Assembly (NCBI GenBank): GCA_035529595.1
Contig: DATKWK010000023.1
Span: 78,517-142,516, forward strand
Source of the DNA: Candidatus Bathyarchaeia archaeon
GTDB lineage: Bacteria > Patescibacteriota > Microgenomatia > PFEM01 > JAFGMK01
DNA: 64,000 nt
Direction of reading: 5' to 3'
Shown here in pieces: positions 21,162-51,701 of the stretch. Below the pieces are notes generated by a model that saw nothing but the letters and a program-made list of their open reading frames with translations, was not told the DNA's origin and searched no databases. Position numbers and translations under genes: made by a program. Each line of letters starts with the position of its first letter. Within the stretch, counting starts at the first letter, position 1.

Positions 21162-21194
21162 AACTCTTATAATGAAATAGCCCAGGAGGTATAA

Positions 21195-36648: not shown

Positions 36649-37959
36649 ATGATCAAACGAATGAAAATTTCTCCTTTTATGTTTAGTCGGGAAGAAAAGA
36701 TCAAGGGTAAAATCTTAATTTTATCTCAGGAAATTTACCCGCAAGTTTGTATTGGCGGATTAGGAAAGTTCGTTGCTGGAATCAGTCACGGTATGCAAGA
36801 CCTCGGTTGGGAAACAACTGTTTTCTTGCCCGAAAATCAAAATCCGGTTTATCTTCCCTATTATTTACCGGAAGCAAAAGCAAGAAGTAGAACCTTGGTA
36901 AAAAAAGCTTTGAGCTGGTGCTGCAATCACCTTTGGTGGCCAAATTGGCTTTGGGTTCAAGATTGGGAAGGTGCTTATCAGGCCGAAGTGTGGCGGCAGC
37001 AAGCGAGGGGAGTTTCTCAATCGGAAACTAAGATAATTTGGACAATTCACAGTCCGCTGACAACCGCCGGTGCAGGCTATAATTATGGTTACCAAGATTT
37101 TAACCAGCCAGATGAGCCGATTGATTGGGGTGATGATTTCTTTGATTTTGCCGCTTTGATTGAAAAAGGCATCTCCAACGTTGACTTAATCAGCACTGTT
37201 TCGTTTTCGTTTGCCAGGAAATTAACCAGGTGTGAATTATTTTCTCAGGCAGATCAGATTTGTGGGATTAATAATGGAATCGATAGTCGGGAATGGGACC
37301 CGTATCACGATAAACAAATTAGCTTTTGCCTTAAAGACAGCTGGCCGGAATTTAAGTTGGTCAACAAAAGAGTCCTTCAGAGAATTTTCGGCTTGCCGCA
37401 GAGGAATGAGCCGGTTTTTGCCTTTGTTTCCCGGTTAGTACCGCAAAAAGGTATCGATCTATTGATAGAAGTTTTACCTGGAATATTGGCTAAAAATCGG
37501 ATTCAGTTGATAGTTGTTGGCCAAGGCTTAACCAGGTACCAATCCTTTTTTGCCCGATTGAAATCCGATTTTCCACAAAAACTTGGCTTATGTCTCCAAT
37601 CAGAATTTCGATTGCCTCATCAAGTTTTTGCGGGTGCAGATTTTCTGATTTTGCCTTCATTTTCTGAACCGTTTGGTATTGTTGTTGCTGAGGCGCGCCA
37701 ATACGGAGTTATCCCAATAGTAAGCGACGTCGACGGCTTAGCAGATCAAGTTCGAAATGATATTGACGGCTTAACCTTTGAAACAGGTAACGTTAATTTA
37801 TTAGCCGGTAAAATCTATGAAGCATTGAGGCTTTTTGGTAGTTCGTCTTATTGGACTCTAAGTAGTAATGGCCGGAATCGAGTTGAGGACTGGCTAGAAA
37901 TTGCGGCACGATATGAGTTTTACTTGGCAGGAGCAGATCAGCAAAGGTATCCCTCTTGA
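36649..37959 (+). CDS. GT4-family (GT-B) glycosyltransferase
   Basis: N-terminal ...EIYPQVCIGGLGKFVAGIS... (glycogen-synthase-like G-rich loop) and C-terminal LPSFSEPFGIVVAEARQYGVIPIVSDVDGLADQV (E-x7-E motif region). Start at the first ATG after the topA stop. Confidence 0.7.
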   Translation: MIKRMKISPFMFSREEKIKGKILILSQEIYPQVCIGGLGKFVAGISHGMQDLGWETTVFLPENQNPVYLPYYLPEAKARSRTLVKKALSWCCNHLWWPNWLWVQDWEGAYQAEVWRQQARGVSQSETKIIWTIHSPLTTAGAGYNYGYQDFNQPDEPIDWGDDFFDFAALIEKGISNVDLISTVSFSFARKLTRCELFSQADQICGINNGIDSREWDPYHDKQISFCLKDSWPEFKLVNKRVLQRIFGLPQRNEPVFAFVSRLVPQKGIDLLIEVLPGILAKNRIQLIVVGQGLTRYQSFFARLKSDFPQKLGLCLQSEFRLPHQVFAGADFLILPSFSEPFGIVVAEARQYGVIPIVSDVDGLADQVRNDIDGLTFETGNVNLLAGKIYEALRLFGSSSYWTLSSNGRNRVEDWLEIAARYEFYLAGADQQRYPS

Positions 37960-40204
37960 AGGCGGTCTCAGAAAACGTTGTTTTCTGGTTAAAGAAGGCC
38001 GTGAGAAACTGGTTTATTCACTTTGGCCCACGGACAGTTTGTCCGAAGAAAAAATTAAGCAGACGATTAAATGGGAGCTGATGGCAAGGGCGAGGGGTGT
38101 ACCGGCTAGGCATTGGCAGAAGCTAGACGGATCTTGGCTTAAAAAAATAAGATTTGAGAGGAAAATATATTGGTTAGGCATTGGGAATTACCTTCCGGGG
38201 CAAATATATTATGATTTAGCGCCGGGACAACTTTACGCTGCCGGTCGAAAGTTAGCTTTTCTTCATCAGTCTTTCCGCCGCTTAAATAATAAAACACTTC
38301 TCCATTTAGATTTTGCTCGGGGCAATTTGCTTTTTAATAAAAAAAAAGAAGTCGCCGGTATTTTAGATTTTGAAGAAGCCGGCTGGGGGATAGTCGAGAA
38401 AGATTTAGCTTGCAGTCTTTCTTTTTTCGTTGTTGATAACGGGCAATTGGCAGATAATCAAATTTGGGGAAATTTTTTAAAGGGCTATACTGATGGAGGT
38501 GGCGATTTTAATTATGATAAGATAAAAAGATTCTATTTTCATTATTTAAAAGTGAGAGCAGAGGAAAACAATCAGAAAGCCTTTTTGTTGCTGGCTCGTG
38601 AGCGCCTAAGGAAAATTCAAGAGCGAATTAAAGCTAAACTGCTGAAAAAAACTGACCTAGAACAGTTTTTGAAAAAACATCAGGACAAGAGAATAGTTTT
38701 TTTAGTGGGAGCGTTTGAGCTGCTTCATTGGGGACACCTTAAATTCTTGAAAAAAGCTAAATCTTTAGGAGATACTCTGGTAGTTGGAGTTGCTTCTGAC
38801 CAGTCAAGGCGGCGCCTCAAAGGAGAACCCTATCCTCTTATCAGTGAACGGACGCGAGCAGAAACATTGGCCTATTTTGACAGTGTCGATGCGGTGGTAA
38901 TAGTGACTGAGGATTCGGTAAGGAAAGAACTCCAATATCTAAAACCAAAGATTTTCTATGCGATTGCTGACGATTGGAAACAGGGAATTAGAAAAATGGA
39001 GGAAGCGGAATCCGTCAGAAGCTGGGGTGGAAAAGTTATCAAGACTCTTTATCTTTCCCCACGAATTTCTTCTTCTCAAATGACTGAAAAAGTCGCTCTT
39101 TTAAAAATAAAACAGGTTCTCTTTGGTAAAAAAATCCGTCAGCCAATGCTTAAACTGAGAAAAAATCGGCGAATTCCGAAAGAAGTCAAATTTCCAGACC
39201 TGGAAAAACTCGAAAAAAGACTGCATCAGCAAAATAAAACAATCGTTTTTGCGAGCTTAACAGCTGACCTTTTTCATTTAGGGCATGCTCGGTTTATTCA
39301 AAAAGCTAAAAGTTTAGCTGATTTTTTGGTAATTGGCGTTCCCAGCAATGAAAGCGTCACTGCCTTAAAAGGGCCTGGCCGGCCGATAATCGACGAGAGA
39401 GCGAGAGCACTGGTTTTATCAGAACTTAACTTTGTTAATAAAGTGGTTATATTTGATGAGCGGACGGTCTTTGGCTGTTTACAGAAACTCAAACCGGATG
39501 TTTTTTTTACAGTTAAGGAAGATTGGAATACCGGTTTGCTTAGCTCGCCTGAAGCACATCTGGTAAGATCTTATGGCGGTAAAATTGCCCGCTCTGAAAG
39601 GCAAGCGCCCTATCTCTCTGCTTCAAAAATGATTGACAAGGCGGCCGGAGAAATAATCCAAAAAAAGTTTTCCGCTTTAATTAAAACCGCGGCAGAAACG
39701 CCGATTCTTGATGCCGATGGTTTTGATCCTCATCATCCGCAAGTTCAGTTAGCAGCTAGGGAGAAAGGTTTTTATGATCAAGTTTTAGCTTCGGTAGCTA
39801 AAAGAGGTAAATGTGTTTTTTGTGACCTTAAAGAAAAATATATCATTGCTTCTCGGGATGGTATTGTTTTAACGGTAGCCCTTTTCCCCTATATTGACGG
39901 CCACCTTTTGGTTATTCCTCGCCGGCACCTATTGACTATTGACCAGCTTAACCCTGGAGAAATTAGCATGATTTTTGATATGGTGGGGAGAGGTAAAAAG
40001 ATTTTGAATCAAGGGTTGGGGATAGAAAATTATTGGATTATTCTTCGGGAAGGGAATGGCATTAAAGCTGGAAAGTCGGTTGATCATTTACATTTTCATC
40101 TGATTCCTTACAATTCGACTGTGGTTAAGATGGGCAATAAAAAGTTAACTTCAACGCCGCTTAAGATGGCTCAAACTTTAAAAAAACAATGGAAAAATAT
40201 TTAA
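37901..40204 (+). CDS. Four-domain fusion: choline/ethanolamine-kinase-like (APH fold) + tandem TagD/ECT-like cytidylyltransferase domains + C-terminal HIT domain
   Basis: Kinase-like: ...HLDFARGNLLFNKKKEVAGILDFEEAGWGIVEKDLA (Brenner/APH motif region). CT domain 1: VFLVGAFELLHWGHLKFLKKAK...ADDWK...RISSSQM (HxGH, RTEGISTT-like). CT domain 2: IVFASLTADLFHLGHARFIQKAK...KEDWN...LSASKM. HIT: DHLHFHLIP (HxHxHxx). Confidence 0.65.
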   Translation: MRHDMSFTWQEQISKGIPLEGGLRKRCFLVKEGREKLVYSLWPTDSLSEEKIKQTIKWELMARARGVPARHWQKLDGSWLKKIRFERKIYWLGIGNYLPGQIYYDLAPGQLYAAGRKLAFLHQSFRRLNNKTLLHLDFARGNLLFNKKKEVAGILDFEEAGWGIVEKDLACSLSFFVVDNGQLADNQIWGNFLKGYTDGGGDFNYDKIKRFYFHYLKVRAEENNQKAFLLLARERLRKIQERIKAKLLKKTDLEQFLKKHQDKRIVFLVGAFELLHWGHLKFLKKAKSLGDTLVVGVASDQSRRRLKGEPYPLISERTRAETLAYFDSVDAVVIVTEDSVRKELQYLKPKIFYAIADDWKQGIRKMEEAESVRSWGGKVIKTLYLSPRISSSQMTEKVALLKIKQVLFGKKIRQPMLKLRKNRRIPKEVKFPDLEKLEKRLHQQNKTIVFASLTADLFHLGHARFIQKAKSLADFLVIGVPSNESVTALKGPGRPIIDERARALVLSELNFVNKVVIFDERTVFGCLQKLKPDVFFTVKEDWNTGLLSSPEAHLVRSYGGKIARSERQAPYLSASKMIDKAAGEIIQKKFSALIKTAAETPILDADGFDPHHPQVQLAAREKGFYDQVLASVAKRGKCVFCDLKEKYIIASRDGIVLTVALFPYIDGHLLVIPRRHLLTIDQLNPGEISMIFDMVGRGKKILNQGLGIENYWIILREGNGIKAGKSVDHLHFHLIPYNSTVVKMGNKKLTSTPLKMAQTLKKQWKNI

Positions 40205-40662
40205 GATTAGCTATAAATGAGGCAGAGAAATCCGGTTGCCGCCGAGCTAAACGGGGTGCCGTGATTATCAAGAATGGTCAAATAGTAAGTCGAGCCCATA
40301 ACCTGGTTTTTCCCAAAAACAGCTTTTGCGAGAAACGCGGTTGCCTGCGGGACAAGTTACGTTTGGGTTTAGGTCAAAATCTTGAACGCTGCCGCTCAAT
40401 TCATGCTGAAGCTTTGGCAATTTGCCGGGCGGCCAGCAAAGGAATTTCTTTGTCTAAAACAGAAATCTTTATGACCGGCCAGCCGTGTATCAACTGCGCT
40501 AAGTTAATCTATGCTTCGGGGGTCAAAAAAGTTTATTATCTTGATGTTTACGGAGATCGAACCGGGGCTATCTTCTTAAACAAAATGGGCGTCTTATGCC
40601 AACGTACCGGAATAGAAAATGATCAGCCTAAAAGGAGAATCAGGGATATTACCAGCCAATAA
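40189..40662 (+). CDS. dCMP deaminase (ComEB-like cytidine/deoxycytidylate deaminase zinc-binding)
   Basis: HAEALAI (HAE) ... TGQPCINCAKLI (PCxxC). Confidence 0.8.
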   Translation: MEKYLRLAINEAEKSGCRRAKRGAVIIKNGQIVSRAHNLVFPKNSFCEKRGCLRDKLRLGLGQNLERCRSIHAEALAICRAASKGISLSKTEIFMTGQPCINCAKLIYASGVKKVYYLDVYGDRTGAIFLNKMGVLCQRTGIENDQPKRRIRDITSQ

Positions 40663-40689
40663 GATCACTTTTAGTCTGGAAAAGATTCT

Positions 40690-42126
40690 ATGAAAAAGAA
40701 ATGGCCGGCTTATTTCAACGAGAGACTTTGGTTGGTTAACCCCAGTCAGGGATATATCGGTATTGTTACCTGCTGGACCGCAAAAGAACAGGTTGCTCCC
40801 CGAATGCCCAGCCAAGTAGCTTTAGTCGGCCAGCTTTATACCAAAGCCGGGATCGAGTTTATCATCCGTAATCTTTGGGCAAATCCGCAAATTTCCTCTC
40901 TGGTAGTTTGCGGCCAGGACTTAACCGGAAGCGGGCAGGCTTTAGTTGAATTTTTTGAAAGAGGGACTATCGATAACCAAAGACCATTTTTTGAAGAGCA
41001 GATACCCAGGAGAGATCTCGTTCTTATCCGGAAAAAAGTCGGCTTGGTTTCTCTCTTGGGCGAGGTAGATCCTGACTTAATTGCGCGAAAAGTTGCTGGC
41101 TTGAAATTTTCTCCTCCTTTTGCTTCCCGGCCTAAATTTTTTCCGCAGTCTCAATTGATGGAGGCCTTTCCTTCCGAGCCTTCGCTGTTTCGGGTTGAAG
41201 CCAAAACAATCGGTGAAGCTTGGCTGCAAATTTTGGGATTGATTTTGAAATTCGGCCGCCGACTTCCGAGGATCTATGTTTACGGAGGCTATGAAAGGGT
41301 TCTCCTAAATTTATCGGTCTTAATAACTGATGAGGATATAAAAAAACCTAAATTATGGCCCTATTTTCAGTTTAATAAGGAACAGCTGAAAACGTATTTC
41401 CGGAGTTTCTTCTCTCCTGAGCGTGGTGGTGAGGCCTATACCTATGGGGAACGACTATTTGCTTATCCGTCAGAGGGGAATGTTGTTGACCAAGTGACTA
41501 AGATGGCTAACAAATTAAAAAGCTTTCCCTATAATAAGGGGGCGTTAGCGGTTCTTTGGCAACCGGCTATCGATAATTTTCCGATCCGTAAGCCCTGGCG
41601 AACACCATGTTTGACTTTAGTCCAGGGGATATGCCTGGGTGATGAACTCTGTTTGACGGCTTTTTTTCGTGCCAATGATATGTTTGCCGCCTGGCCTCAA
41701 AACTGCTTTGCTTTAAGGAAACTGCAAACAGAGATTGCCAAAAAAATCGGCAAAAAAATCGGCGCTTTGACGACGATATCTCATACTGCCTTTATTGATG
41801 AGGCTGATTTGCCTAAAGCACAAAAGGTTATTAATGACAACCAGCCGTTGTTCTGCCAATTAGATCCGCGGGGAAATATAGCGGTTACGGTTGAAGGGAA
41901 AATTATCGTTAGCCGTCATTTTTCGCCGGAAGGAAAACTCTTAGCAGAATACCGCCAGAATGGTTTGGTACCGAAGGCAGCCTTGAAATTGGAACGAAAG
42001 CTTATCTCAAGCCAGGTTATTTCCAGAGTTGACCATGCCCTGGATATCGGCGAACACCTGGGCCGGGCCGAGGATGCCGTTAAGTTAGGATTAAAGTTTG
42101 AACAAGATCGGCAACTAAAGAAATAA
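40690..42126 (+). CDS. Thymidylate synthase (ThyA)-family enzyme with about 170-aa N-terminal extension and C-terminal tail (478 aa); dUMP-utilising methylase or hydroxymethylase
   Basis: ThyA-like blocks: YGERL (cf. YGxQWR), VDQVTKMANKLKSFP...ALAVLWQP (cf. IDQ..LK.DP.SRR..SAWNP), PCLTLVQ (catalytic Cys in the PCH context), FRANDMFAAWPQN (cf. YQRSxDxxLGxPFN; Asn retained), SHTAFI (cf. GDxHxY). The phosphate-binding RR pair appears replaced (NK). Confidence 0.6.
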   Translation: MKKKWPAYFNERLWLVNPSQGYIGIVTCWTAKEQVAPRMPSQVALVGQLYTKAGIEFIIRNLWANPQISSLVVCGQDLTGSGQALVEFFERGTIDNQRPFFEEQIPRRDLVLIRKKVGLVSLLGEVDPDLIARKVAGLKFSPPFASRPKFFPQSQLMEAFPSEPSLFRVEAKTIGEAWLQILGLILKFGRRLPRIYVYGGYERVLLNLSVLITDEDIKKPKLWPYFQFNKEQLKTYFRSFFSPERGGEAYTYGERLFAYPSEGNVVDQVTKMANKLKSFPYNKGALAVLWQPAIDNFPIRKPWRTPCLTLVQGICLGDELCLTAFFRANDMFAAWPQNCFALRKLQTEIAKKIGKKIGALTTISHTAFIDEADLPKAQKVINDNQPLFCQLDPRGNIAVTVEGKIIVSRHFSPEGKLLAEYRQNGLVPKAALKLERKLISSQVISRVDHALDIGEHLGRAEDAVKLGLKFEQDRQLKK

Positions 42127-42299
42127 TCAACCAAAAAACAATAATCTGGTTATTTGCCAGTTGACGGGTTTTTAGTATAATGCTCTTGATTAAGTGGGTC
42201 TTACTCCTTTTTCTCCTGCCCGGAAAAGAAGAATAACAGGATTTTAAACAGTAAATCTAGTCGTTTTAATTTAAATAATTCCTTTTCGCGTCGGCTAAA

Positions 42300-43385
42300 A
42301 TGAATATTGTTGAAGTTTTAAGAAAACCGGAATTAACAACCGGTGGTGTTTATCGGTTAGAAGCTGGCATCTTGCCTGATCCAGTTCAAGTTCAAATTTT
42401 AGCTGATATTGAAACTTTCACTAATTCAAGATTTAATTGGCAGGAATTTGTTCAAGAAGCCGGAGAGAGATGGGCAGATTACATTCCTGTGGGGGATAGA
42501 TTTCGTACCGATCGGCCGACTGATACGGAGCTTGAAGAGATTACCTGGAGCCATTTGGTAAGCGGAGTCTATTCTAATCAACAAGCCACAATTGAGGTAA
42601 TAAAGAAAGCTTGGGATGTTCAAGCCGGTCATGAAACCGGTAGCCTAAGTCTAGGTCGCCATTTAGTAGTGATTGGATTAATGGGAACCGGAAAAACAGA
42701 GTTGGCTAAAGCCTTGCACGGCGGAAATCCTTTTTATTCAAAACTCTTGCTGGAACAATGGGAAGATAATAGTAGTCTTGCCTATTTCTATGATTTATTA
42801 GAGACATATTTAGATCCGCTTTGCGCTCAAGCCCCGGATTTCCAGGATTTAAATAGCTTATTAACTAATGTCCAAGGATCAGCTCAGGGCCATTTTGCCG
42901 CCTGTAAATTTATTCAAACATTAAATGGGATGTCTGATTTAGGTAATGGTTTTGATTTAGTTCAGGATACCAACTTGAGTGTTACTGATATGGTTTTTTT
43001 TAATAGCCAGGCGATGTTGAGATTAGCCAGTCAAGAAAACATAGAGGCTTATAAAAGAGACAATGCCTATCGGCAAAGATTGACTCCTCCCTATCTGCGG
43101 TTAGGGCATGACCGATCAATGATGGTTTACCTTTGGGCGCCACTGTCGGAAATTAGAGCCAGAATTGTTCATACTAGAGGCCGGGAAATCGAACGGCAGA
43201 TCCCTTGGGGATATCTTGAACTCTTATACTTAAATACCCTTCAATGCGTATTAGCAATGAGTCAGGCCGGAGCGCCGGTTTTAGTCGTCGATGCCCGGGC
43301 CGATTTTCGGTCGTTCAGAAGCGACCGGTCACTTATAGTCCGTGATATTTGGGAAAAAATGGGTGGTATCAGGGGCCAATCTTAG
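42300..43385 (+). CDS. Deoxynucleoside-kinase (dNK/dCK/dGK) family P-loop kinase with about 130-aa N-terminal extension
   Basis: P-loop VVIGLMGTGKTELAKAL; DRS motif (cf. ERS); Arg-rich lid IRARIVHTRGREIERQIPWGYLELL (cf. dCK RIYLRGRNEEQGIPLEYLEKL). Confidence 0.6.
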   Translation: MNIVEVLRKPELTTGGVYRLEAGILPDPVQVQILADIETFTNSRFNWQEFVQEAGERWADYIPVGDRFRTDRPTDTELEEITWSHLVSGVYSNQQATIEVIKKAWDVQAGHETGSLSLGRHLVVIGLMGTGKTELAKALHGGNPFYSKLLLEQWEDNSSLAYFYDLLETYLDPLCAQAPDFQDLNSLLTNVQGSAQGHFAACKFIQTLNGMSDLGNGFDLVQDTNLSVTDMVFFNSQAMLRLASQENIEAYKRDNAYRQRLTPPYLRLGHDRSMMVYLWAPLSEIRARIVHTRGREIERQIPWGYLELLYLNTLQCVLAMSQAGAPVLVVDARADFRSFRSDRSLIVRDIWEKMGGIRGQS

Positions 43386-43484
43386 TTTTTTTAATAATGC
43401 TGATTATAAATTCTTTAGGAAAATGATAAAATAGCTCCTAAAGGAAGATTTTGTTCCGGAAGCAGTATTTTAGATATCACCTTA

Positions 43485-44801
43485 ATGATTGATAAGGAAG
43501 TTTTTGATCTTATTCGTAAGGAAGAGAAGCGCCAAGAAGAGGGCTTGGAGCTGATTCCCTCTGAAAATTATGTCTCCAAAGAAGTCCGGCAAGCCTTGGG
43601 CTGCATTTTGACTAACAAATACTCCGAGGGTTATCCGCGCAAGCGCTATTATGGCGGTAACGAAGTTGTTGACGAAATCGAAAGCTTAGCTATAAAACGG
43701 GCTAAAAGACTTTTCAAAGTGCCCCACGTTAATGTTCAGCCCTATTCCGGATCGCCGGCTAACTGGGCGGTTCATGGTGCTCTTTGCCAACCGGGAGACA
43801 TAATTCTTTCACAACATCTCTCCCACGGCGGCCATCTCAGCATGGGCCAGGAAGCTAATCTTTCATCAAAATTTTTCCATGCTTATTATTATCATTTAAC
43901 TGCTGACGGCAGTGTTGATTTTAAGGAGTTGGAGAGTCTGGCCAAAAAAATTAAGCCCAAAGTTATTTGGTCTGGCGGAACTGCCTATACTATAAAGTTT
44001 AACTTCTTAAAATACGCCCAGATAGCCGATCAGGTAGGTGCTTATTTTGTGGCCGATATTGCTCATATTGCCGGTTTAATCATCGGCGGTATTCACCCCA
44101 GCCCGGTTCGTTATGCTCATCTGGTGACCACTACTACCCATAAAACCCTGCGCGGTCCGCGGGGAGGGATGATTATGGTGACCAAAAAAGGTTTGAAAAC
44201 TGATCCTGATTTAGCACGAAAAATTGACCGGGCGGTTTTTCCCGGCCTCCAAGGTGGGCCCCACGACAATCAGATAGCTGCTTTAGCCATTGCCCTAAAG
44301 GAGGCGTCGACTGTTAAATTCAAGGAATACACGCGGCAGGTTGTTGTTAATGCCCGAGCATTAGCGCGGATTCTCAAGAGAGCTGACTTAAAGTTAATTG
44401 GAAACGGTACCGAAAACCACATGATTTGGGTCGATTTAACCGATCAAGGAATTGATGGTTGGCAAGTTCAAGTTGCCTTAGACGTTCTCGGAATCTCAAT
44501 CAATCGCCAGACGATTCCTTTTGATCTGCGTCCGGCTTATTACCCAAGCGGTATCCGACTGGGTACGCCGGCAGTGACTACCCGGGGAATGAAAGAGGCG
44601 CAAATGAGACTGATCGGCGATTGGATTATCCAGGTAATTAATATTGTCCGAGAGATTAAATGCGTGGGGTTGGGAAGCTCCGACCGGGAGGAAGACCAGG
44701 CGGCGCGGAAAGAATTTAAGGAAAAAATTAAATTGCATCCCCATCTTCGGCATCTGCAAAAAGAAGTCAAGTCTTTTTGTTTAAACTTCCCGATTCCTTA
44801 A
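43485..44801 (+). CDS. glyA: Serine hydroxymethyltransferase
   Basis: LELIPSENYVSKEV..., TTTTHKTLRGPRGGMI (PLP-Lys region). Confidence 0.9.
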   Translation: MIDKEVFDLIRKEEKRQEEGLELIPSENYVSKEVRQALGCILTNKYSEGYPRKRYYGGNEVVDEIESLAIKRAKRLFKVPHVNVQPYSGSPANWAVHGALCQPGDIILSQHLSHGGHLSMGQEANLSSKFFHAYYYHLTADGSVDFKELESLAKKIKPKVIWSGGTAYTIKFNFLKYAQIADQVGAYFVADIAHIAGLIIGGIHPSPVRYAHLVTTTTHKTLRGPRGGMIMVTKKGLKTDPDLARKIDRAVFPGLQGGPHDNQIAALAIALKEASTVKFKEYTRQVVVNARALARILKRADLKLIGNGTENHMIWVDLTDQGIDGWQVQVALDVLGISINRQTIPFDLRPAYYPSGIRLGTPAVTTRGMKEAQMRLIGDWIIQVINIVREIKCVGLGSSDREEDQAARKEFKEKIKLHPHLRHLQKEVKSFCLNFPIP

Positions 44802-44809
44802 ACAATCCT

Positions 44810-45664
44810 ATGGTATATATTTTTGACGGTAAAAAAGAAGCCGGGGAAATTAAAGCTTCTTTAAAAAAGAAGATTTTTAAGCTTAAAAAAAAGCCGGTTT
44901 TGGAACTGGTTCTGGTCGGCGATGATTCGGTTAATGAGAGTTACTTAACACAACTGCAAAAAATAGCCCTAGAGTTAGAAGTTAGGCTTTCTATTCATCG
45001 ATTTGGAAACTGTGTCAGGTGGGAAAAAATGGCAGAATATTTTACCAGGAAAAATAATAATGAAGAGATTAAGGGGATTTTGGTCCAAATTTCACCCAGT
45101 TGTTCTCTTTTTAGTAAACGGGAGGAGGTTATTAATCTGCTAAAGCCGGAGAAAGACAGCGACTTTTTGGGAGAAATTTTTTTCAAGGATAAAAATCGTC
45201 TCCCCTCAGTTTGTCAGGCGGTACTTATTGCGATTAATAAGGCCAGTGAGGTTTTAAGCTTTCATTCGCAATGGGTAAATACTTTAGTTATCGGTAATCA
45301 GGGTTTTTGGGGCAGAAGAATTCAGCAAACACTAATTAATCAAGGATTTGAAAACGTTGCCGGTATTGACAAAGAGACAATCGATCTTAAACTTGCTTGT
45401 ACTGAAGCTGATATTATTATTTCCTGTACCGGTCAGCCGGGATTAATTAAGAGACCAATGGTCAAAAAAGGAGCGGTGGTTATTGATGTTGGTGTTTCTA
45501 TTCCGGAGCACCGGTATAATTCCGGTCCCAGAGCGGATCGGGTAATTGGAGATGTTGACTTTAGATCAGTTTCACGGGTGGCCGGCTTTATCACCCCTGT
45601 CCCCGGCGGCATCGGGCCATTGAGTACGATTTTGGCGTTTAAGAATTTAGTGGGAAGAAATTAA
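44810..45664 (+). CDS. folD: Bifunctional 5,10-methylene-THF dehydrogenase/cyclohydrolase
   Basis: N-terminal ...LVLVGDDSVNESYL...; C-terminal ADIIISCTGQPGLIK...GAVVIDVGV...GDVDF...ITPVPGGIGPLSTILAFKN. Start set at the MVYIFDG ATG just after the glyA stop. Confidence 0.8.
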   Translation: MVYIFDGKKEAGEIKASLKKKIFKLKKKPVLELVLVGDDSVNESYLTQLQKIALELEVRLSIHRFGNCVRWEKMAEYFTRKNNNEEIKGILVQISPSCSLFSKREEVINLLKPEKDSDFLGEIFFKDKNRLPSVCQAVLIAINKASEVLSFHSQWVNTLVIGNQGFWGRRIQQTLINQGFENVAGIDKETIDLKLACTEADIIISCTGQPGLIKRPMVKKGAVVIDVGVSIPEHRYNSGPRADRVIGDVDFRSVSRVAGFITPVPGGIGPLSTILAFKNLVGRN

Positions 45665-45761
45665 GTTAAAATAAAGCGAATTTAAACTCCTGCCCTGTCT
45701 ATAATTATAGAAAGAAATACCTTTTTTATAAAATTTTAAAGAAGAAGACATAATTACCGGG

Positions 45762-46253
45762 ATGGTAGAGAGAGATAATGGAGAGACAGAAGCAGTAGTT
45801 GGGAGAAGGGTTCGTTTGGCTGAAGATATATTTTGGGCTTGGGCACAAAGTGATCTTTACGGTGAGACTGTGTATCTGACCTTAACTGACGGACAGCGTC
45901 TCGCCCTTGATATTGAATATGGTCTTTGGGAGGACATACTGGATGATGTTTTGGATTGGGAAAGAGAAGAAGATGATGAAGATGAGTGGAAAACACTTGC
46001 TGAACGGGAAGGAATTGAAGCTAAATTACACGAGTTGGGTTTGAATAAAGATTTTTATTTTTTTTTCATTATTAGTGATCCGACGAGAGAGGAAGGAGAA
46101 GTTGGTCATTGTTTTGGCATTTATTCTGATCGGCAAACGGTTGGGGTTTTAAAAAGATTAGAAAAAAAATATGATTATTGTTTTGGAATCGATAAAGTGA
46201 TTCCTCGTGATATAGTAGATGCCTTTTGGCAAGCTTTAGCTAGCGCTGACTAG
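45762..46253 (+). CDS. Acidic hypothetical protein (163 aa), paralog of 47782-48237
   Basis: Shares LTLTDGQRLALDIEYGLWEDILDDVL / LALTDGRQLALEIGYVSWDDMLYSVL and C-terminal ...GIDKVIPRDIVDAFWQAL / ...GVDGVIPDEIALALEIAL blocks with the paralog. Confidence 0.5.
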   Translation: MVERDNGETEAVVGRRVRLAEDIFWAWAQSDLYGETVYLTLTDGQRLALDIEYGLWEDILDDVLDWEREEDDEDEWKTLAEREGIEAKLHELGLNKDFYFFFIISDPTREEGEVGHCFGIYSDRQTVGVLKRLEKKYDYCFGIDKVIPRDIVDAFWQALASAD

Positions 46254-46335
46254 AAAAATCTGCTCGAAAAAAAGTTGAATAGCCTTCATTAATTTAACCT
46301 GCCCAAAGAAAAAGTTAATAGTTTCTTAAATAAAC

Positions 46336-47745
46336 ATGCCAAGAAGTCTGGAGTTGCGTGATTTGTTTTGGCGGCAAGAATTTTTATATCCTAATGGAGA
46401 CTGCTTTGACTGGTTTGGAATAGGACCGTTAAGGCACAATGATGAGTCTGTTATAGCCGTTGAAACGCCTTTTGACACCGGAAGGCGATCAATCCTTGAT
46501 CTGCCGGTGGCGGCTGATTTGCATGCTTTACAAGAGGGATTAGATAGTTTTAAGCCAAGTCGGGAAGTATTAGGGAGGATAGCGAAACTTTACGGGCAGA
46601 TATTTGAACATTTAGAGAAAAACGGCCACGAAGTTCAACTAAAAACTGATTTATGTGCAAGATTATGGGATCTATACCATCAAATACATTACGAAGATTA
46701 TGCTTTTTCATACTCGGGCGCTCTTGGGTGTAGTACTTCTTATGCTTGGGGTTTAGTCCATGCTTGTGCTCAAAGGCGAGCCTTAATTAGATCAGCCGGT
46801 TTGAAAGACGATCAACTGGCAAAATTAGTCATTGATGAGTGGCTTCTTTACGAAAGACTTCATTTGCCTCCTTCAGCTGATGATGAAACTCAGGCTTGTG
46901 GAATTTTAGGCGGCCGAAGAGATAATTTAGCTCTTTGGCACCAAGCTTGGTTGCCGTCTATTTATTTTGACCAGACTTTAGGCCTTTATCGGGTTGAAGG
47001 ACTGAGTATTACTCAGGGTTTAATCGAAAGATGCTATCGAAATTTTCTGCCGATCCCCTGGATTGGTTTTGAAGGTCTTGACAAAAGCGGTAAAGATACC
47101 CAGGCTGATATTTTGGTGAAGTTTTTGGAGGATGTTTTAGGTTGGCAGGTTCTTCCTCAGAATTTTCCGACAAATTTAAAAATTGGACAGATGATTAAAG
47201 CGGCCTTAGGAGGCGAGATTACTTTTGATAACCGGGCGATGCAAAAACTATTTCAAGCTGATCGGGCTGATTGGCGCTGGCAGGCAGAAATGGGTAAAAT
47301 AACCGAAGGTCGAGCTTGTTTGGTCACCAAAAGACATTCGGCCTCCGGTATTGCTTATGGGGCTGAAGATTATGCCAGTTTACTAAGATATGTTGTTGAG
47401 CATTTCATGCTCGGCTGGGCCGATTTAACGATTTTTATTGATGTTCCTGAAGATGAATGTTTAAGAAGACTTAAAGGCCGGCCGGAAATGTACGAGAGGA
47501 GAGAAAAATTGGCAGGAGCAAGGACGAACTATTTGGCTCTTTTAGATATCTTACCGCATTTTGTCCGGCTTGAGGGGATGAATTCGGATGGTAGTCCGAA
47601 ATCGCCGGAGGTTATTTTCCGAGAAACAGTGGGAATCCTGGTTTCACAGATGCCTGCTGAGAAATTAACCCCAAAACAAAAAGAGAAAATAGTTGGTAGT
47701 CTTGATAGTTGGATTGCTGATAATAAAGACCGGTTCGTAGTTTAA
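46336..47745 (+). CDS. Two-domain protein: unknown N-terminal domain (about 250 aa) + C-terminal thymidylate-kinase-like domain with atypical P-loop (GLDKSGKD)
   Basis: IGFEGLDKSGKDTQADIL (cf. Tmk FEGIDGAGKTTQ) and downstream FQADRADW (cf. Tmk DR motif). Confidence 0.5.
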   Translation: MPRSLELRDLFWRQEFLYPNGDCFDWFGIGPLRHNDESVIAVETPFDTGRRSILDLPVAADLHALQEGLDSFKPSREVLGRIAKLYGQIFEHLEKNGHEVQLKTDLCARLWDLYHQIHYEDYAFSYSGALGCSTSYAWGLVHACAQRRALIRSAGLKDDQLAKLVIDEWLLYERLHLPPSADDETQACGILGGRRDNLALWHQAWLPSIYFDQTLGLYRVEGLSITQGLIERCYRNFLPIPWIGFEGLDKSGKDTQADILVKFLEDVLGWQVLPQNFPTNLKIGQMIKAALGGEITFDNRAMQKLFQADRADWRWQAEMGKITEGRACLVTKRHSASGIAYGAEDYASLLRYVVEHFMLGWADLTIFIDVPEDECLRRLKGRPEMYERREKLAGARTNYLALLDILPHFVRLEGMNSDGSPKSPEVIFRETVGILVSQMPAEKLTPKQKEKIVGSLDSWIADNKDRFVV

Positions 47746-47781
47746 TATTACTGTACTGATTAATATTTTTTATCATTATGG

Positions 47782-48237
47782 ATGATTTTTGAAAACGACC
47801 GGACAAATTATGATAAGTTGTCTACTGAAAGAAGAATACCCTTAGCCCAATACATGTTTCATATGTTAGCCCGAGATGGATTAACCGAAGAGATCTTTCC
47901 ATTAGCTTTAACTGACGGACGACAACTTGCTCTTGAGATTGGATATGTTAGTTGGGATGATATGCTGTATTCTGTTTTACAAGCGGGTGAGGAACGAGAT
48001 AGGCTTCTGATACAACTAGCTGAACTTGGTTTAGATCAACAATTTGTCTATTTAATTTTCGTGCAAGCTGCGCCAGAGGGAAGAGAACCACAGGAGGCAA
48101 CTTGTTACATCGATCGAGAAACCTTTAACGTTTTACATCCTTTTGAAAAAGAATATCAGTGGGATTTTGGAGTTGATGGGGTAATTCCTGATGAGATAGC
48201 TTTGGCTTTGGAAATAGCCTTGCAGTCCCGAATTTAA
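47782..48237 (+). CDS. Acidic hypothetical protein (151 aa), paralog of 45762-46253
   Basis: See paralog entry. Confidence 0.5.
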   Translation: MIFENDRTNYDKLSTERRIPLAQYMFHMLARDGLTEEIFPLALTDGRQLALEIGYVSWDDMLYSVLQAGEERDRLLIQLAELGLDQQFVYLIFVQAAPEGREPQEATCYIDRETFNVLHPFEKEYQWDFGVDGVIPDEIALALEIALQSRI

Positions 48238-48339
48238 TTCTGAGTTTAATGAAGCATAAATCTTTTTGCTACCATGACCTAGCGTCTGCTAGCAAAACAA
48301 ACTGGTAGTTTATAACCTAAGCGATATTATTTAACTGAA

Positions 48340-49224
48340 GTGGCCAAACAAGAAGCCGAATCAAGATTTGATTTCGTACCTAGCCCAGAAATTCTTTATC
48401 TCGAGAGCCCGGAGCAACTTCAGGACAGAGAGATTTTTGTCTATCGGGTACATGATCCTGAACCGATGTTTGCGCGCCAGGTAGTGGAGAGGCTTTGGGG
48501 AATAGCAGGTGAAGTAAATCCAGGAACTGAAATGCCTATTAAATTTTACCGGAGAATGCCTCATGGAATTAAAAGCGATTCGGTTCATGACGAGTTCAAT
48601 ATATCTTTGGCAGTGCCGATTGAAAATCAATTAGCGGAAGCATTAGGAATTTGTCAGGGATTAGCTTTTATTGATCGGAAGAATTCCGATCTTCCGTGGA
48701 ATTTAGTGGTTGAAAGCCCGGTGATCGCCTCAAGCGAAGGAGACGCTAGTCATTTTTTATTGATTGATCTTGATGGTAAGGTTAATAGCCTAGATCAGTT
48801 CGTAATCGAAAATAGTTTTAAAGCAGCCGGTTTTTCCGGGTTTTTATTGGTTAGCGGCGCCTCTTATCATTACTGGTCTGATTTTACTGTTTCGGCGGAT
48901 AGTCTGCCGGCTTTTTTGGGGACTGCGGCTGCGGCTTTAACACCGCAAGTTTCCGATAATGATCGTTTATTGTCGATTGCTTTTCGAATGTCAGTTTGCC
49001 AAAATTTGGCAGAAGGTCAGGAATTAGCTTCTCAAATTCTTAACCGGAACAGCGCTCTTTTTATTCCTTCTTCAGGCAGTGGTTTTAAAAGCGGGAGTTT
49101 TTTTGATTTTCGCTGGGCTTGTCACCGTTTATTAGCCGGGAAATTAGCTTTGAGGGTAAGTTCGGACCGATATCCGCAAGAACCGATATTGATTTCCGAA
49201 TTAACGGCCAGAAGCTTTTCATGA
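48340..49224 (+). CDS. Hypothetical protein (294 aa)
   Basis: No recognisable motif. Follows the acidic paralog in the same way the 469-aa protein does. Confidence 0.4.
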   Translation: MAKQEAESRFDFVPSPEILYLESPEQLQDREIFVYRVHDPEPMFARQVVERLWGIAGEVNPGTEMPIKFYRRMPHGIKSDSVHDEFNISLAVPIENQLAEALGICQGLAFIDRKNSDLPWNLVVESPVIASSEGDASHFLLIDLDGKVNSLDQFVIENSFKAAGFSGFLLVSGASYHYWSDFTVSADSLPAFLGTAAAALTPQVSDNDRLLSIAFRMSVCQNLAEGQELASQILNRNSALFIPSSGSGFKSGSFFDFRWACHRLLAGKLALRVSSDRYPQEPILISELTARSFS

Positions 49225-49241
49225 ATGACGAAAAGTAAGAG

Positions 49242-49342
49242 TTCAGATTTACTGGCACACTTGGTCATGCTGAACTTGATTCAGGATCTACATAGATTCC
49301 GTGTCAAGCACGGAATAACGGGATTGTGTCAAAGAATCTGAG
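49242..49342 (+). mobile_element. MITE-like structured repeat, copy B
   Basis: TTCAGATTTACTGGCACAC...GATTCCGTGTCAAGCACGGAATAACGGGATTGTGTCAAAGAATCTGAG; about 90 % identical to copy A. Confidence 0.75.
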
Positions 49343-49425
49343 CGGTTACGACGAAAACAGATTATGGTTAATATTCTCTTTATTTGATAAGATAAATAAT
49401 TAGAGTTTACTTGGAGGGCAGGCAG

Positions 49426-50043
49426 ATGAAACCAAATCCTTATCCCGGGTTTTTTGTTGTTATCGAGGGCCTTGACGGTTGCGGAGCTTCAAGCCAAATT
49501 GAGCCGGTCGCCGAAGCTTTGCGGATCGGGAATAAGGAGGTAACCACTACCAGTGAACCGACTGATAATATTTTAGGAGGTCTGCTTCGCGGTGCTTTGA
49601 CTGGTGTCTACCGCTTGCCGCCTGCTTCTCTTCAGCTTCTTTTTGTGGCCGATCGTCTTCATCATTTAGACCGTTTAATCGAGCCGGTTCTAAAAAAAGG
49701 CGAACTGGTTTTATGCGATCGTTATTTTTGGTCAACTATTGCTTATGGTTCGATTGATTTGGATTTCAACTGGTTGTTGGAAATTAACCAATACTGTTTA
49801 CTGCCTGATCTTTCGATATTTCTTAAAGTTGACCCCTTAACCTGTTTTCAACAAATCAAAAAAAGCCGGTTTGGATTAGAGCTTTTTGAAAACCGCCAGA
49901 AACTGGACCAAGTCTGGCGGATCTATGAAAAACTGGCTCGAAAATATCCCAGAGAGATTGTTTTTGTTGATGGTGAACGAGTTTCTTCTGAGGTTAAAAG
50001 TAACATTCTAAAAGCGATAAAACACCATCCGAAATTCTCCTGA
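49426..50043 (+). CDS. Thymidylate kinase-like protein with degenerate Walker A (GLDGCGASSQ; P-loop Lys and Thr absent)
   Basis: FFVVIEGLDGCGASSQ (cf. Tmk IEGLEGAGKTTQ); LLFVADRLHH (DR motif); CDRYFWSTIAYG (cf. DRYxxSSxAYQ). ATG 49426 preferred (RBS GGAGGG 7 nt upstream) over the TTG at 49411. Confidence 0.55.
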   Translation: MKPNPYPGFFVVIEGLDGCGASSQIEPVAEALRIGNKEVTTTSEPTDNILGGLLRGALTGVYRLPPASLQLLFVADRLHHLDRLIEPVLKKGELVLCDRYFWSTIAYGSIDLDFNWLLEINQYCLLPDLSIFLKVDPLTCFQQIKKSRFGLELFENRQKLDQVWRIYEKLARKYPREIVFVDGERVSSEVKSNILKAIKHHPKFS

Positions 50044-50113
50044 CTTTTGGCATCATGATACAAATCATGATATCAGGTTTTCAAGAAGAGAAATTTTTGT
50101 TACACTGCAAGGG

Positions 50114-50671
50114 ATGAAAATCAGAAAACAGACACTCGAGAAAATATGCAACTGTATTTCCAGCCGCTTGGTAATTCCGGGCGGAGGAGCGGCATCAGCT
50201 ATATGCGGAGCGTTAGCTGCCGGCCTGGTTGCCAAAGTGGCTGCTTTTTCGATTGACCGCCGGAATGAACAGCCAAATGAAATTCGTCTTAAAGAAATCC
50301 GCCAGAAAGCTAAGGAACTGGTGGTCGTTTTCCAGGAACTGGCTGAAGAAGATTGTCTTGCTTACGAGTCATTTTCAAAAGATAAAAAAGCTAAAAAAAG
50401 GATCAAAAAGGTTGTCGAAATACCGCTTGAAATTGCCCGAAATGCAGTCGAAATACTAGAATTGGCGAGTTTTTTAGTTGATCAAGGAAACCAGAGGTTG
50501 ATTTCTGACAGTCGCTGTGCTTTTGAGTTGGGGACGGCTGCTTTCTACGGAGCACTTGAAATAATCAAGATTAACTTGCCGCTTCTTGATAAGGGCTGCA
50601 AATTCGAAAGCGAAACGAGAGAAGAAATTGACCGGCTTCTTGACCGGGTGAAGAATTTGTTCAAAGCCTGA
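50114..50671 (+). CDS. Cyclodeaminase/cyclohydrolase family protein (FTCD C-terminal-domain-like; methenyl-THF cyclohydrolase-like)
   Basis: LVIPGGGAASAICGALAAGLVAKV (cf. PGGGSAAALSGALAAAL of formiminotransferase-cyclodeaminase C domain). Confidence 0.55.
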   Translation: MKIRKQTLEKICNCISSRLVIPGGGAASAICGALAAGLVAKVAAFSIDRRNEQPNEIRLKEIRQKAKELVVVFQELAEEDCLAYESFSKDKKAKKRIKKVVEIPLEIARNAVEILELASFLVDQGNQRLISDSRCAFELGTAAFYGALEIIKINLPLLDKGCKFESETREEIDRLLDRVKNLFKA

Positions 50672-50825
50672 GTTTCTTTTTTTCATCATTGCCAGATTCT
50701 GACCGGGATGTTAAAATAATCCCATATTTAATTAATCACGCACACCGGCTGGACTCCTTGCTGACTTCTTGGCCGGTGGAGGAGAAAAGGAGGCGACGTT
50801 ACTTGGGATACGTCGTAATTCATCT

Positions 50826-51689
50826 ATGATCGATAAACAAATATCTTTACAGGAATTACTTGAGGTCGGGGCTCATTTCGGTCATCAGCCGCGGCGTTGG
50901 AATCCAAGAATGAAGCCTTATTTATACGGTAACCGGGACGGAGTTCATATTTTTGATCTGGTGAAAACCAAAAAATTGCTTGAAGACGCCTGTGAATTCA
51001 TTAAAGAGCAGATTGTAGAAGGAAAAGTGATTGTTTTTGTCGGCACCAAAAGGCAAGCGGCCGATATTATCCGGGAAGAGGCTAAAAGAGCTGAGGTCCC
51101 CTATGTTAGCCAACGCTGGCTGGGTGGAACGATTACCAATTGGGAACAGATCAGAAAAAGCGTCAAGAAACTGGCGGACATGAAAGCTAAGAAGGAAACC
51201 GGAGGTTACGATAAATACACCAAAAAAGAAAATATTTTAATTGATCGGGAGATTGCCCGGCTGGATAAGTTTTTTGGCGGTCTGTCTGAATTGCATAAAA
51301 TTCCCGATGTTCTTTTTGTCGTTGATGTAAAAAGGGAAGAAGCAGCAATCAAGGAAGCTCTTAAAGTGAGCATTCCGATCGTAGCGATGGTTGACAGCAA
51401 CAGCGATCCGACCATGATTGACTGGGTGATTCCGATTAACGATGATGCCGTGCGTTCAGTGAAGCTGGTAGTTTCCCGGGTTGCCGATGCGGTAATCGAA
51501 GGCCGCCAAATTGGAAAGAAGCGAACAGAAAAAAGCGACAAAAGAAAATCTGCGCCCAAAAAAGAGCCTAAGGAAACGCCTGCTAAAGAGAGTAAAAAAA
51601 GTAAGGTTCAAGAAAGAAAAGCTAAAGAAACTAAAATCAAAAAAAACAGTAAAAAAACACCGACTACAAAGAAAATAAGCACCAAGTAG
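50826..51689 (+). CDS. rpsB: 30S ribosomal protein S2 with Lys-rich C-terminal extension
   Basis: ISLQELLEVGAHFGHQPRRWNPRMKPYLYG...; start set at MIDKQ (the track ORF begins 57 nt earlier). Confidence 0.85.
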   Translation: MIDKQISLQELLEVGAHFGHQPRRWNPRMKPYLYGNRDGVHIFDLVKTKKLLEDACEFIKEQIVEGKVIVFVGTKRQAADIIREEAKRAEVPYVSQRWLGGTITNWEQIRKSVKKLADMKAKKETGGYDKYTKKENILIDREIARLDKFFGGLSELHKIPDVLFVVDVKREEAAIKEALKVSIPIVAMVDSNSDPTMIDWVIPINDDAVRSVKLVVSRVADAVIEGRQIGKKRTEKSDKRKSAPKKEPKETPAKESKKSKVQERKAKETKIKKNSKKTPTTKKISTK

Positions 51690-51701
51690 CGGAGGAAGTG
51701 T

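Follow-up and report, generated by a model that had tools for sequence, protein, structure and literature searches.

Canonical thymidylate synthases (TS) of the ThyA type (PF00303, TIGR03284) contact the 3'-OH of the deoxyribose through H207 and Y209 (E. coli numbering) and the phosphate through an arginine pair, R126' and R127', contributed by the partner subunit, and their reaction yields dihydrofolate. In an archaeal lineage, the methanogen-type synthases (TIGR03283), whose prototype is M. jannaschii MJ0757, the enzyme is reduced to a short core of ~200 amino acids (aa); methanogens are not known to have TS candidates other than the stand-alone members of this lineage. Among the TS homologues of phages, a 2026 study linked N177D to the use of deoxycytidine monophosphate (dCMP), D169N to flavin-dependent 5-hydroxy-dCMP synthases, and L143D or L143E to hydroxymethyl products, L143 being proposed to exclude water and favor methyl transfer (PMC13326640). 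We analyzed a 64-kb stretch of one genome (contig DATKWK010000023.1, positions 78,517 to 142,516; here called the window) together with related loci in genome and metagenome collections. At 40189-50671, the window carries a single run of deoxypyrimidine and one-carbon (C1) genes, all on the same (+) strand, and one of these encodes a 478-aa ThyA-family protein that is a new member of a database-recognized, biochemically unstudied three-domain family, with clade-specific changes in its nucleotide contacts. We put the probability that it is a housekeeping synthase, forming thymidine monophosphate (dTMP) within a conserved operon, at about 0.75.

Architecture, distribution, and host of the three-domain protein

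The 478-aa protein consists of an MtrA-like domain, a short TS core, and a PterinBD-DUF4346 domain (Table 1). TIGR03283 is the best family for the core, at 111.7 bits against a cut-off of 174.55 and over profile positions 3 to 199 of 201, and canonical ThyA models gave only ~25 bits. The protein resembles the methanogen-type enzymes in the length of its core and in the motifs YTYGER, PC[LM], and FRSND...N, but it scores below their equivalog cut-off, has a domain on either flank of the core, and belongs to a bacterial host with a tetrahydrofolate (THF)-type GlyA, FolD, and Fmt rather than tetrahydromethanopterin metabolism. With the canonical ThyA of E. coli and L. casei it shares the catalytic Cys, R166, D169, N177, and Y94, as well as a supplier of deoxyuridine monophosphate (dUMP) and a Tmk nearby, whereas identity is ~24% over ~120 residues and both flanking domains are extra. 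In the fusion of a TS core to a pterin-related domain, it is like the bifunctional dihydrofolate reductase (DHFR)-TS of protozoa and plants. A preliminary description of the window, made from the sequence alone, had reported an N-terminal extension of the ThyA-family protein, which is present, and had missed the C-terminal domain; the Cys in its PCL context (C307), the YGERL and VLWQP blocks, and the Asn of the pyrimidine loop (N338) are all there, as it had said, and vary little or not at all among 264 family members.

The N-terminal domain is a true MtrA homologue (family profile versus 5laa, E = 2e-15) and shares with MtrA (5laa, 5l8x) the motif NPxI..L[VI].CG. Cobalamin binding in MtrA involves the cobalt ligand His84, a relay through Glu54, and a GAIPF-x-EN meander (PMC4915002). 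Aligned with 5laa, the domain of our family has a near-invariant Ser (S81) for His84 and K52 for Glu54, an 8-residue deletion truncates the meander, and there is no membrane anchor; MtrA-style cobalamin binding is unlikely because of these replacements and this truncation, and we rejected cobalamin-dependent methyl transfer through the domain. We recognized no binding motif for NAD(P)H, a flavin, or an Fe-S cluster in the three-domain protein. The core extends to about aa 390, where DUF4346 follows directly, and this third domain also matches the C terminus of TIGR00284, an archaeal dihydropteroate-synthase-like protein. A DPRG motif at the junction is invariant, and the accessory-domain residues that are invariant across the family include W29, G47-Q48, N61, G75, and R394. 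Judged from the domain names and their co-occurrence, the MtrA-like and PterinBD-DUF4346 domains may provide the site at which the C1 carrier binds. An AlphaFold2 (AF2) model of the protein reached a predicted local distance difference test (pLDDT) value of 93.7 and a predicted template modeling (pTM) score of 0.81; its best structural matches were 9iqc, a flavin-dependent dCMP hydroxylase (23.3), and MilA, a CMP hydroxymethylase (22.0), followed by bacterial ThyA (18.8 to 19.8), T4 dCMP hydroxymethylase (18.1), and MtrA (5laa; 17.6).

A protein search found 194 homologues, and all 120 of those listed, mostly 440 to 550 aa in length, share the Pfam domains, except that MtrA does not score in every one. 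NCBI or JGI already labels several of them thymidylate synthase, some as "thymidylate synthase (methanogen type)." The scan of one genome per species gave 80 loci in many classes of the candidate phyla radiation (CPR), DPANN archaea, Chloroflexales (with Oscillochloris and Viridilinea as cultured carriers), and cyanobacteria; methanogens have TS-only versions, with no adjacent accessory-domain genes, and, used alone, the TS core matched 411 clusters built at 50% identity (E ≤ 1e-10). Variants of the architecture include TS-DUF4346 proteins that lack MtrA, proteins in which DUF4346 occurs twice, and a 733-aa single polypeptide (P0193) that joins MtrA, TS, DUF4346, and dCMP deaminase. Three proteins of 733 to 837 aa (P0177, P0211, and P0147) have two PterinBD-DUF4346 copies, and the ~300 aa that separate these have no domain assignment. 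In the searchable literature, we found no published biochemistry for the three-domain family, DUF4346, PterinBD, or MJ0757, and the CPR literature that we found treats thyA and folA only generically. Across a very large share of the uncultivated prokaryotes, the TS is a three-domain protein whose database label comes from homology, and knowing how it binds its C1 donor and whether it releases dihydrofolate would fill a gap in a textbook pathway.

The host is an ultra-small bacterium of the Patescibacteria (CPR, Microgenomates/Shapirobacteria-like). The nearest homologues of the synthase are from Patescibacteria, Shapirobacteria above all, and the neighborhood genes are bacterial (mreBCD, PBP2, dprA, topA, fmt/def, dnaX, and recR). 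In a neighbor-joining tree, which is rough in that it has no support values and uses a hidden Markov model (HMM) built from the family itself, the protein nests in a Shapirobacteria-like CPR clade, apart from viral sequences. Database proteins identical to those of the window (P0001 and P0270; locus tags VMW41_...) carry the NCBI name "Candidatus Bathyarchaeia archaeon." Given the bacterial gene content and the CPR relatives, this label is almost certainly an error of binning or taxonomy, and the genome is probably a misassigned metagenome-assembled genome. A second, different TS-like open reading frame (ORF) of 317 aa occurs on a Patescibacteria contig (RA.bin104; L037:11847-12797, - strand), directly after the three-domain gene and adjoining a dCMP deaminase gene; it has the motifs DYTYHER, PPCL, and RSRD...N, and TS paralogues can therefore coexist in CPR genomes.

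Gene neighborhood and one-carbon supply

Gene calls were taken from an ORF listing, and domain identities came from Pfam and NCBIfam scans (Table 1). The listing bears out the positions and the common strand given in the preliminary description, and the scans agree with its naming of dCMP deaminase, a ThyA-family protein, dNK, glyA, a folD-like gene, and an FTCD_C gene; the N-terminal extension that it gave the dNK is real, with ~120 aa ahead of the PF01712 match. Of the three Tmk-like modules that it counted, two are Tmk-family ORFs and the "third" kinase is the dNK, and three further ORFs of the interval, the two acidic ones and the one related to the archaeo-eukaryotic primase (AEP) superfamily, it had not named. 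The run continues downstream into rpsB, tsf, and frr, and its gene order is identical on one ENA contig of 274,886 bp. At its upstream end, the 767-aa gene overlaps the start of the dCMP deaminase gene by 16 nucleotides (nt); the deaminase shows HAE and PCxxC zinc motifs.

Table 1. Features of the deoxypyrimidine/one-carbon gene run and its borders, in window positions
Feature	Position	Strand	Basis or remark
767-aa multidomain protein: APH-like kinase, two cytidylyltransferase-like domains, HIT	37901-40204	+	Pfam
dCMP deaminase (ComEB-like), dUMP supplier	40189-40662	+	PF00383, 2.3e-19; PHROG dCMP deaminase, 1e-31
ThyA-family protein, 478 aa	40690-42126	+	PF00303, 38.5 bits (cut-off 24.3)
TS domain 1, MtrA-like, Rossmann type (aa 1-150)	40690-41139	+	
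TS domain 2, short methanogen-type thymidylate synthase core (aa 165-390)	41182-41859	+	
TS domain 3, PterinBD-DUF4346 (aa 391-478)	41860-42126	+	PF14251, 2e-10
dNK-family deoxynucleoside kinase	42300-43385	+	PF01712, 40 bits (aa 122-350)
GlyA, serine hydroxymethyltransferase	43485-44801	+	488 bits; PF00464, 2e-146; NF000586, 508 bits (cut-off 335)
Divergent FolD-like methylene-THF dehydrogenase	44777-45664	+	PF00763 and PF02882; NCBIfam scores far under cut-offs
Acidic 163-aa protein	45762-46253	+	Paralogue of 47782-48237
469-aa fusion: helical N-terminal domain (aa 1-240), Tmk domain (aa 245-404)	46336-47745	+	
Acidic 151-aa protein	47782-48237	+	Paralogue of 45762-46253
AEP-like protein, 294 aa	48340-49224	+	PF24387, 38.5 bits
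Short Tmk, 210 aa	49411-50043	+	TIGR00041 (dTMP kinase), 128 bits (cut-off 83)
FTCD_C/FchA-like methenyl-THF cyclohydrolase	50114-50671	+	PF04961, 1.4e-30
rpsB and tsf, conserved downstream operon end	50769-52169	+	Pfam on called genes

The same neighborhood recurs in relatives. A dCMP deaminase gene lies immediately upstream of the TS gene in 33 of the 80 genome loci (CPR) and in 7 of 8 close metagenome relatives, and the 767-aa gene precedes this pair in 28/80 and 7/8, respectively. Cyanobacteria have the dCMP deaminase gene immediately downstream of the TS gene, a dCTP deaminase gene occupies that position in 10 Chloroflexales loci, and P0193 carries the deaminase within the TS polypeptide itself. 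That nonhomologous dUMP-producing enzymes were recruited in three phyla is a strong indication that the TS uses dUMP as its substrate. Downstream of the TS gene, relatives have tmk, glyA, folD, and rpsB-tsf, with tmk as the conserved neighbor, and the ancestral order is the 767-aa gene, dCMP deaminase, TS, a variable kinase slot, tmk, glyA, folD, rpsB, and tsf. This core order, which recurs in related CPR contigs, and the association of the TS with a deaminase (dCMP deaminase in cyanobacteria, dCTP deaminase in Chloroflexales, and a fused dCMP deaminase in P0193) support one proposal of the preliminary description, a streamlined regulon for deoxythymidine triphosphate (dTTP) synthesis and one-carbon metabolism in a salvage-dependent symbiont. 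In two of the Chloroflexales loci (L063:11528-13216 and L075:9298-10500), the dCTP deaminase match is in two pieces ~0.6 to 1.1 kb apart, which could reflect an intein or another insertion.

In such a regulon, the dNK-like kinase would phosphorylate salvaged deoxynucleosides, dCMP deaminase would convert dCMP to dUMP, and GlyA would charge THF with the methylene group of serine to give 5,10-methylene-THF. The 478-aa enzyme, which belongs with its three domains to the archaeal methanogen-type ThyA lineage and whose core keeps the residues that recognize uracil and pterin, would then methylate dUMP to dTMP, Tmk-family kinases would carry the product on to thymidine diphosphate, and the FolD-like dehydrogenase and FchA-like cyclohydrolase would turn methylene-THF into 10-formyl-THF for Fmt. 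The supply of dUMP and of methylene-THF, thymidylate synthesis, and phosphorylation would thus be packed beside rpsB-tsf in a genome-reduced bacterium, an arrangement that is useful for the metabolic reconstruction of CPR bacteria and unsurprising in itself.

The one-carbon genes have peculiarities of their own. In the FolD-like protein, YLTQL stands where E. coli FolD has YVASK, with Leu at the cyclohydrolase Lys (K54 in E. coli, K56 in the human enzyme), and DSDFL stands for DVDGF (the E. coli ThyA, FolA, and FolD and T4 gp42 sequences that we used were entered by hand, T4 serving as a rough outgroup only); the catalytic Lys of the YxxxK motif of bifunctional FolD is therefore missing although both Pfam domains are present, and FolD of three relatives keeps it. 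Of the loci examined, only those of this genome and of the sister contigs L085/L086 have an FTCD_C/FchA-like gene just upstream of rpsB, and this gene may be a nonorthologous replacement of the cyclohydrolase half of FolD. With fmt and def both encoded in the window, THF is most likely to be the C1 carrier, because GlyA is of the bacterial type and Fmt is a consumer of 10-formyl-THF.

Active-site residues and competing reactions

To place the active site, 264 TS domains of the family were aligned to the family HMM (counts below are out of 264), with the register cross-checked by HMMER against L. casei TS, on the basis of its PDB structure, and by MAFFT with E. coli ThyA. The nucleophile C146 corresponds to C307 and is kept in 263 domains, and the residues that contact phosphate, pterin, and uracil are likewise retained: R166 is R327 (263/264), Y94 is Y252 (264/264), D169 is D330 (248/264), and N177 is N338 (259/264). 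Asn at N177 would make dUMP, not dCMP, the substrate, and Asp at D169 departs from the signature of the flavin-dependent 5-hydroxy-dCMP synthases; by these residues, both in the state of canonical ThyA, the protein reads as a pterin-dependent enzyme acting on dUMP, and the two positions argue for that assignment. Accordingly, neither the Asp at N177 with Asp or Glu at L143 of the dCMP and CMP hydroxymethylases nor the D169N-N177D pair of the 5-hydroxy-dCMP synthases is present (N338, R304, and D330).

The preliminary description held that the RR pair had been lost and replaced by NK. HMMER alignment with L. casei TS and the family alignment both set N282 at S125, K283 at R126, and G284 at R127; one Arg position is indeed lost, but the register proposed was off by one, and K283-G284 keeps one basic residue. 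At R126, the family has Arg in 148 and Lys in 96 domains, and the half-kept pair is a feature of the whole clade, not a peculiarity of the window gene. The stand-alone methanogen enzymes keep S-R-R, whereas the window clade has N-K-G together with Phe and Asp at H207 and Y209.

Several findings weigh against assigning dTMP synthesis to this protein. Its phosphate pair falls short of that of dUMP-methylating ThyA, R127 being G284 (Gly in 136 and Arg in 87 domains), and L143, a hydrophobic position in those enzymes, is R304, at a site that is variable and polar or charged across the family. The 3'-OH contacts are gone, with F368 for H207 (His in 162/264) and D370 for Y209 (Tyr in 200/264), Phe and Asp being the residues of the ~50 closest sequences; the register of both is ambiguous in the pairwise alignment with L. 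casei TS, and the family alignment was used instead. The core lacks the folate-binding insert that carries E58, W80, and W83 in E. coli ThyA and the C-terminal tail that closes over the site (MAFFT alignment with E. coli ThyA), both of which the methanogen-type enzymes lack as well. No DHFR was found in the window (Pfam on ORFs) or in ~90 related loci, for which E. coli FolA was the sole query. The 210-aa Tmk, despite its score as a dTMP kinase, has lost the Walker-A Lys (GLDGCGAS). Finally, the biochemistry of archaeal ThyA is poorly known (PMC9012536, PMC9931769), and dTMP formation in vitro has been shown for no three-domain member and arguably for no methanogen-type ThyA.

Some of these features are those of C5-hydroxymethylases, and the preliminary description had compared the protein with phage enzymes of that kind and raised the possibility of a noncanonical deoxynucleotide. 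The protein would then be a dUMP C5-hydroxymethylase or another C5-modifying homologue, and the odd kinases would feed its product into DNA. Like T4 gp42, MilA, RB69 gp48/HY126 (9iqc), and short viral TS homologues, it has an incomplete RR pair and a nonhydrophobic residue at L143. Its H207 and Y209 equivalents are replaced, and structure comparison ranks a hydroxylase and a hydroxymethylase highest. The L143 equivalent is Asp or Glu in 31/264 family members, and an acidic residue at that position is tied to hydroxymethyl products (PMC13326640). A hydroxymethylase needs no DHFR, the adjoining dUMP-producing enzymes would suit a dUMP hydroxymethylase equally well, and several kinases of the cluster have odd P-loops. 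However, the L143 rule may not be transferable to this lineage and is uninformative for it, since the stand-alone methanogen-type enzymes have Asp, Glu, His, Asn, or Tyr at the site; in the inspection of discriminating residues that the preliminary description had recommended, N177 and D169 thus came out as methylase-like, and the Arg at L143 did not. The family is cellular and ancient, spread over four phyla that include cultured Chloroflexales and cyanobacteria, and tmk is its conserved downstream neighbor. Pfam on the window ORFs detected no thyX, canonical thyA, or folA, and unless they have another TS, these organisms would lack a way to make dTMP. We therefore regard a hydroxymethylase as highly improbable.

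Comparison with viruses points the same way. In phage GenBank (50,697 records), tblastn turned up nothing but weak similarity to the TS core, in each case under 60% identity and at 26 to 28% among the matches listed, the best match being a "methanogen-type TS" of a methanogen virus; IMG/VR yielded mostly TS-only proteins of 220 to 290 aa at 21 to 29% identity and three distant multidomain ones, and fold matches in BFVD covered the TS core only. A phage origin of the synthase was rejected on these results. Against the phage TS homologues, the window protein has Asn rather than Asp at N177, Asp rather than Asn at D169, and Arg rather than Asp or Glu at L143; it shares ≤29% identity with them and clusters separately in the tree, inside the CPR clade. 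Pfam and PHROG scans of the cluster found no glycosyl-, amino-, or other hypermodification transferases, in the window no modification genes lie downstream of the synthase, and the context is one of housekeeping genes (mreBCD, topA, rpsB, and tsf). The noncanonical deoxynucleotide is left without support by the lack of such genes and of any phage or IMG/VR sequence above ~29% identity.

About 45 viral contigs (L090-L137) encode short TS homologues that have Asn at N177 and Asp at L143 and lack the RR pair; by these residues they look like candidate dUMP hydroxymethylases. The resemblance in RR loss noted in the preliminary description is real for these viral proteins, but the window protein does not belong among them on that account. 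Two of the contigs (L109 and L110) carry two TS homologues each, one of them with N177D.

A different question is whether dTMP is reached by the canonical chemistry. The missing E58/W80/W83 insert and tail, two additional domains whose invariant residues are kept across four phyla, and the lack of a DHFR in the window and related loci would all fit a mechanistically distinct route, in which the accessory domains hold another C1 carrier or a reductant, or regenerate the tetrahydro form, and no DHFR is needed. The logic would be analogous to that of DHFR-TS fusions or ThyX, DUF4346 is common to the dihydropteroate-synthase-like TIGR00284, and in the model the pTM of 0.81 suggests a fixed arrangement of the domains. 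No motif for NAD(P)H, flavin, or Fe-S is recognizable in the protein, however, the cobalamin ligands of MtrA are missing, and methanogen cores exist without accessory-domain genes beside them. A DHFR may also be encoded in another part of the genome; folA genes are reported from CPR (PMC11974145). We consider such a route unlikely. In a broader form of the idea, to which we give a similarly low but slightly better chance, the MtrA-like/short-TS/PterinBD architecture would be a third, mechanistically distinct build of thymidylate synthase, shared by much of the CPR and DPANN and some Chloroflexales and cyanobacteria, in which accessory domains replace the canonical folate-binding elements and might alter the C1 carrier or the redox accounting (DHFR, for instance, might no longer be needed), and in which the window clade would have rewired its nucleotide contacts (K-G, R304, F368, and D370); a product other than plain dTMP in this clade is a less likely extension of it. 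Our preference remains a dTMP-forming synthase that uses THF.

Inserted genes and minor observations

Five genes of the run stand out as outliers in composition, namely the dNK-like gene, both acidic paralogues, the Tmk fusion, and the AEP-like gene. Their products contain 1 to 5% Lys, against 7 to 15% in neighbors, have K/(K+R) ratios of 0.17 to 0.40, and are all net acidic, and the GC content at third codon positions of the genes is 0.27 to 0.36, against 0.42 to 0.49. All five are absent from all related TS loci examined, and no relatives were found in PHROG, PADLOC, phage records, IMG/VR, or JGI metagenomes. The dNK gene and the block at 45.7 to 49.2 kb are two lineage-specific insertions in the ancestral order.

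Such outliers, absent from related TS loci and nearly orphans (four homologues for the Tmk fusion and one for the AEP-like protein), invite the suggestion that they are remnants of a mobile-element or virus-derived module of nucleotide metabolism, which would be compatible with a dTMP-forming synthase beside them. AEP-family proteins are typical of mobile elements. There is, however, no integrase, tRNA target, or flanking repeat around the inserted genes, the sole repeat being one due to the acidic paralogues (38% identity, E = 1e-24), which share the 71-nt repeat D1. PHROG, PADLOC, phage, and IMG/VR collections contained no relatives, and relatives of the locus also carry varied kinases in the same slot. 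The one other homologue of the AEP-like protein (70% identity; L085:1588-2472, in the sister contigs L085/L086) has the same position between folD and fchA, beside or after a different, 350-aa Tmk-like gene, and this shared position points to vertical inheritance within the lineage. A mobile origin thus seems to us a doubtful, if tenable, suggestion. We read the inserted region instead as a lineage-specific nucleotide-kinase slot with fast turnover in a salvage-dependent organism, not as a modification pathway. A reading of the inserted genes as a defense system was rejected, PADLOC having given only trivial matches to P-loop, HIT, and deaminase domains.

The kinases of the run vary in their P-loops, as the preliminary description had noticed: the dNK has a normal GLMGTGKT, the 469-aa fusion has GLDKSGKD, and the 210-aa Tmk has the Lys-less sequence given above. 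Tmk proteins without the P-loop Lys also occur in four related loci (L061, GSGAN; L074, GSGQT; L024, GAGVE; L145, GSGSD), whereas other relatives have GSGKS, and a Lys-bearing Tmk fusion lies near a Lys-less Tmk both in the window and in L145. In relatives, the variable kinase slot holds, among others, a DPCK-like protein and N-terminally extended Tmk fusions with GSGKATQ. Two cheap and testable hypotheses arise here, one from the Lys-less Tmk and one from the pairing of a FolD that lacks the cyclohydrolase Lys with an FchA-like gene.

Four homologues of the Tmk fusion were found in 5.8 billion proteins, in unrelated CPR contexts (L082-L084 included). The resulting five-member family has an invariant GSGKDTQ P-loop and the N-terminal motifs AWGLxHAxAQRxAL and WHSxW; no structural or sequence relatives of the N-terminal domain (~240 aa) were detected. 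An AF2 model built from 5 sequences was mediocre (pLDDT of 73.9). In the AEP-like protein, the DxD (LIDLD) and SGxxxH (SGASYH) motifs are intact. The acidic 163-aa ORF matched nothing in Pfam, NCBIfam, PHROG, or PADLOC, and no viral or metagenome relatives of the dNK-like gene were found. The 173-nt gap before the latter contains the best sigma-70-like match of the region, TTGCCA-16-TATAAT (11/12), at 42154-42181.

Two further observations concern more distant parts of the material. A Woesearchaeota locus (L052:5409-8423) has an ORF of ~1,000 aa with two Tmk modules (GSGKETQ and GSGKSTQ), ~2 kb downstream of a three-domain TS gene. At 18543-22711 of the window lie a gene for a dockerin-bearing subtilase of 872 aa and, after it, two genes for proteins with cohesin domains; together they make up a cellulosome-like pairing of cohesin and dockerin in a CPR genome.

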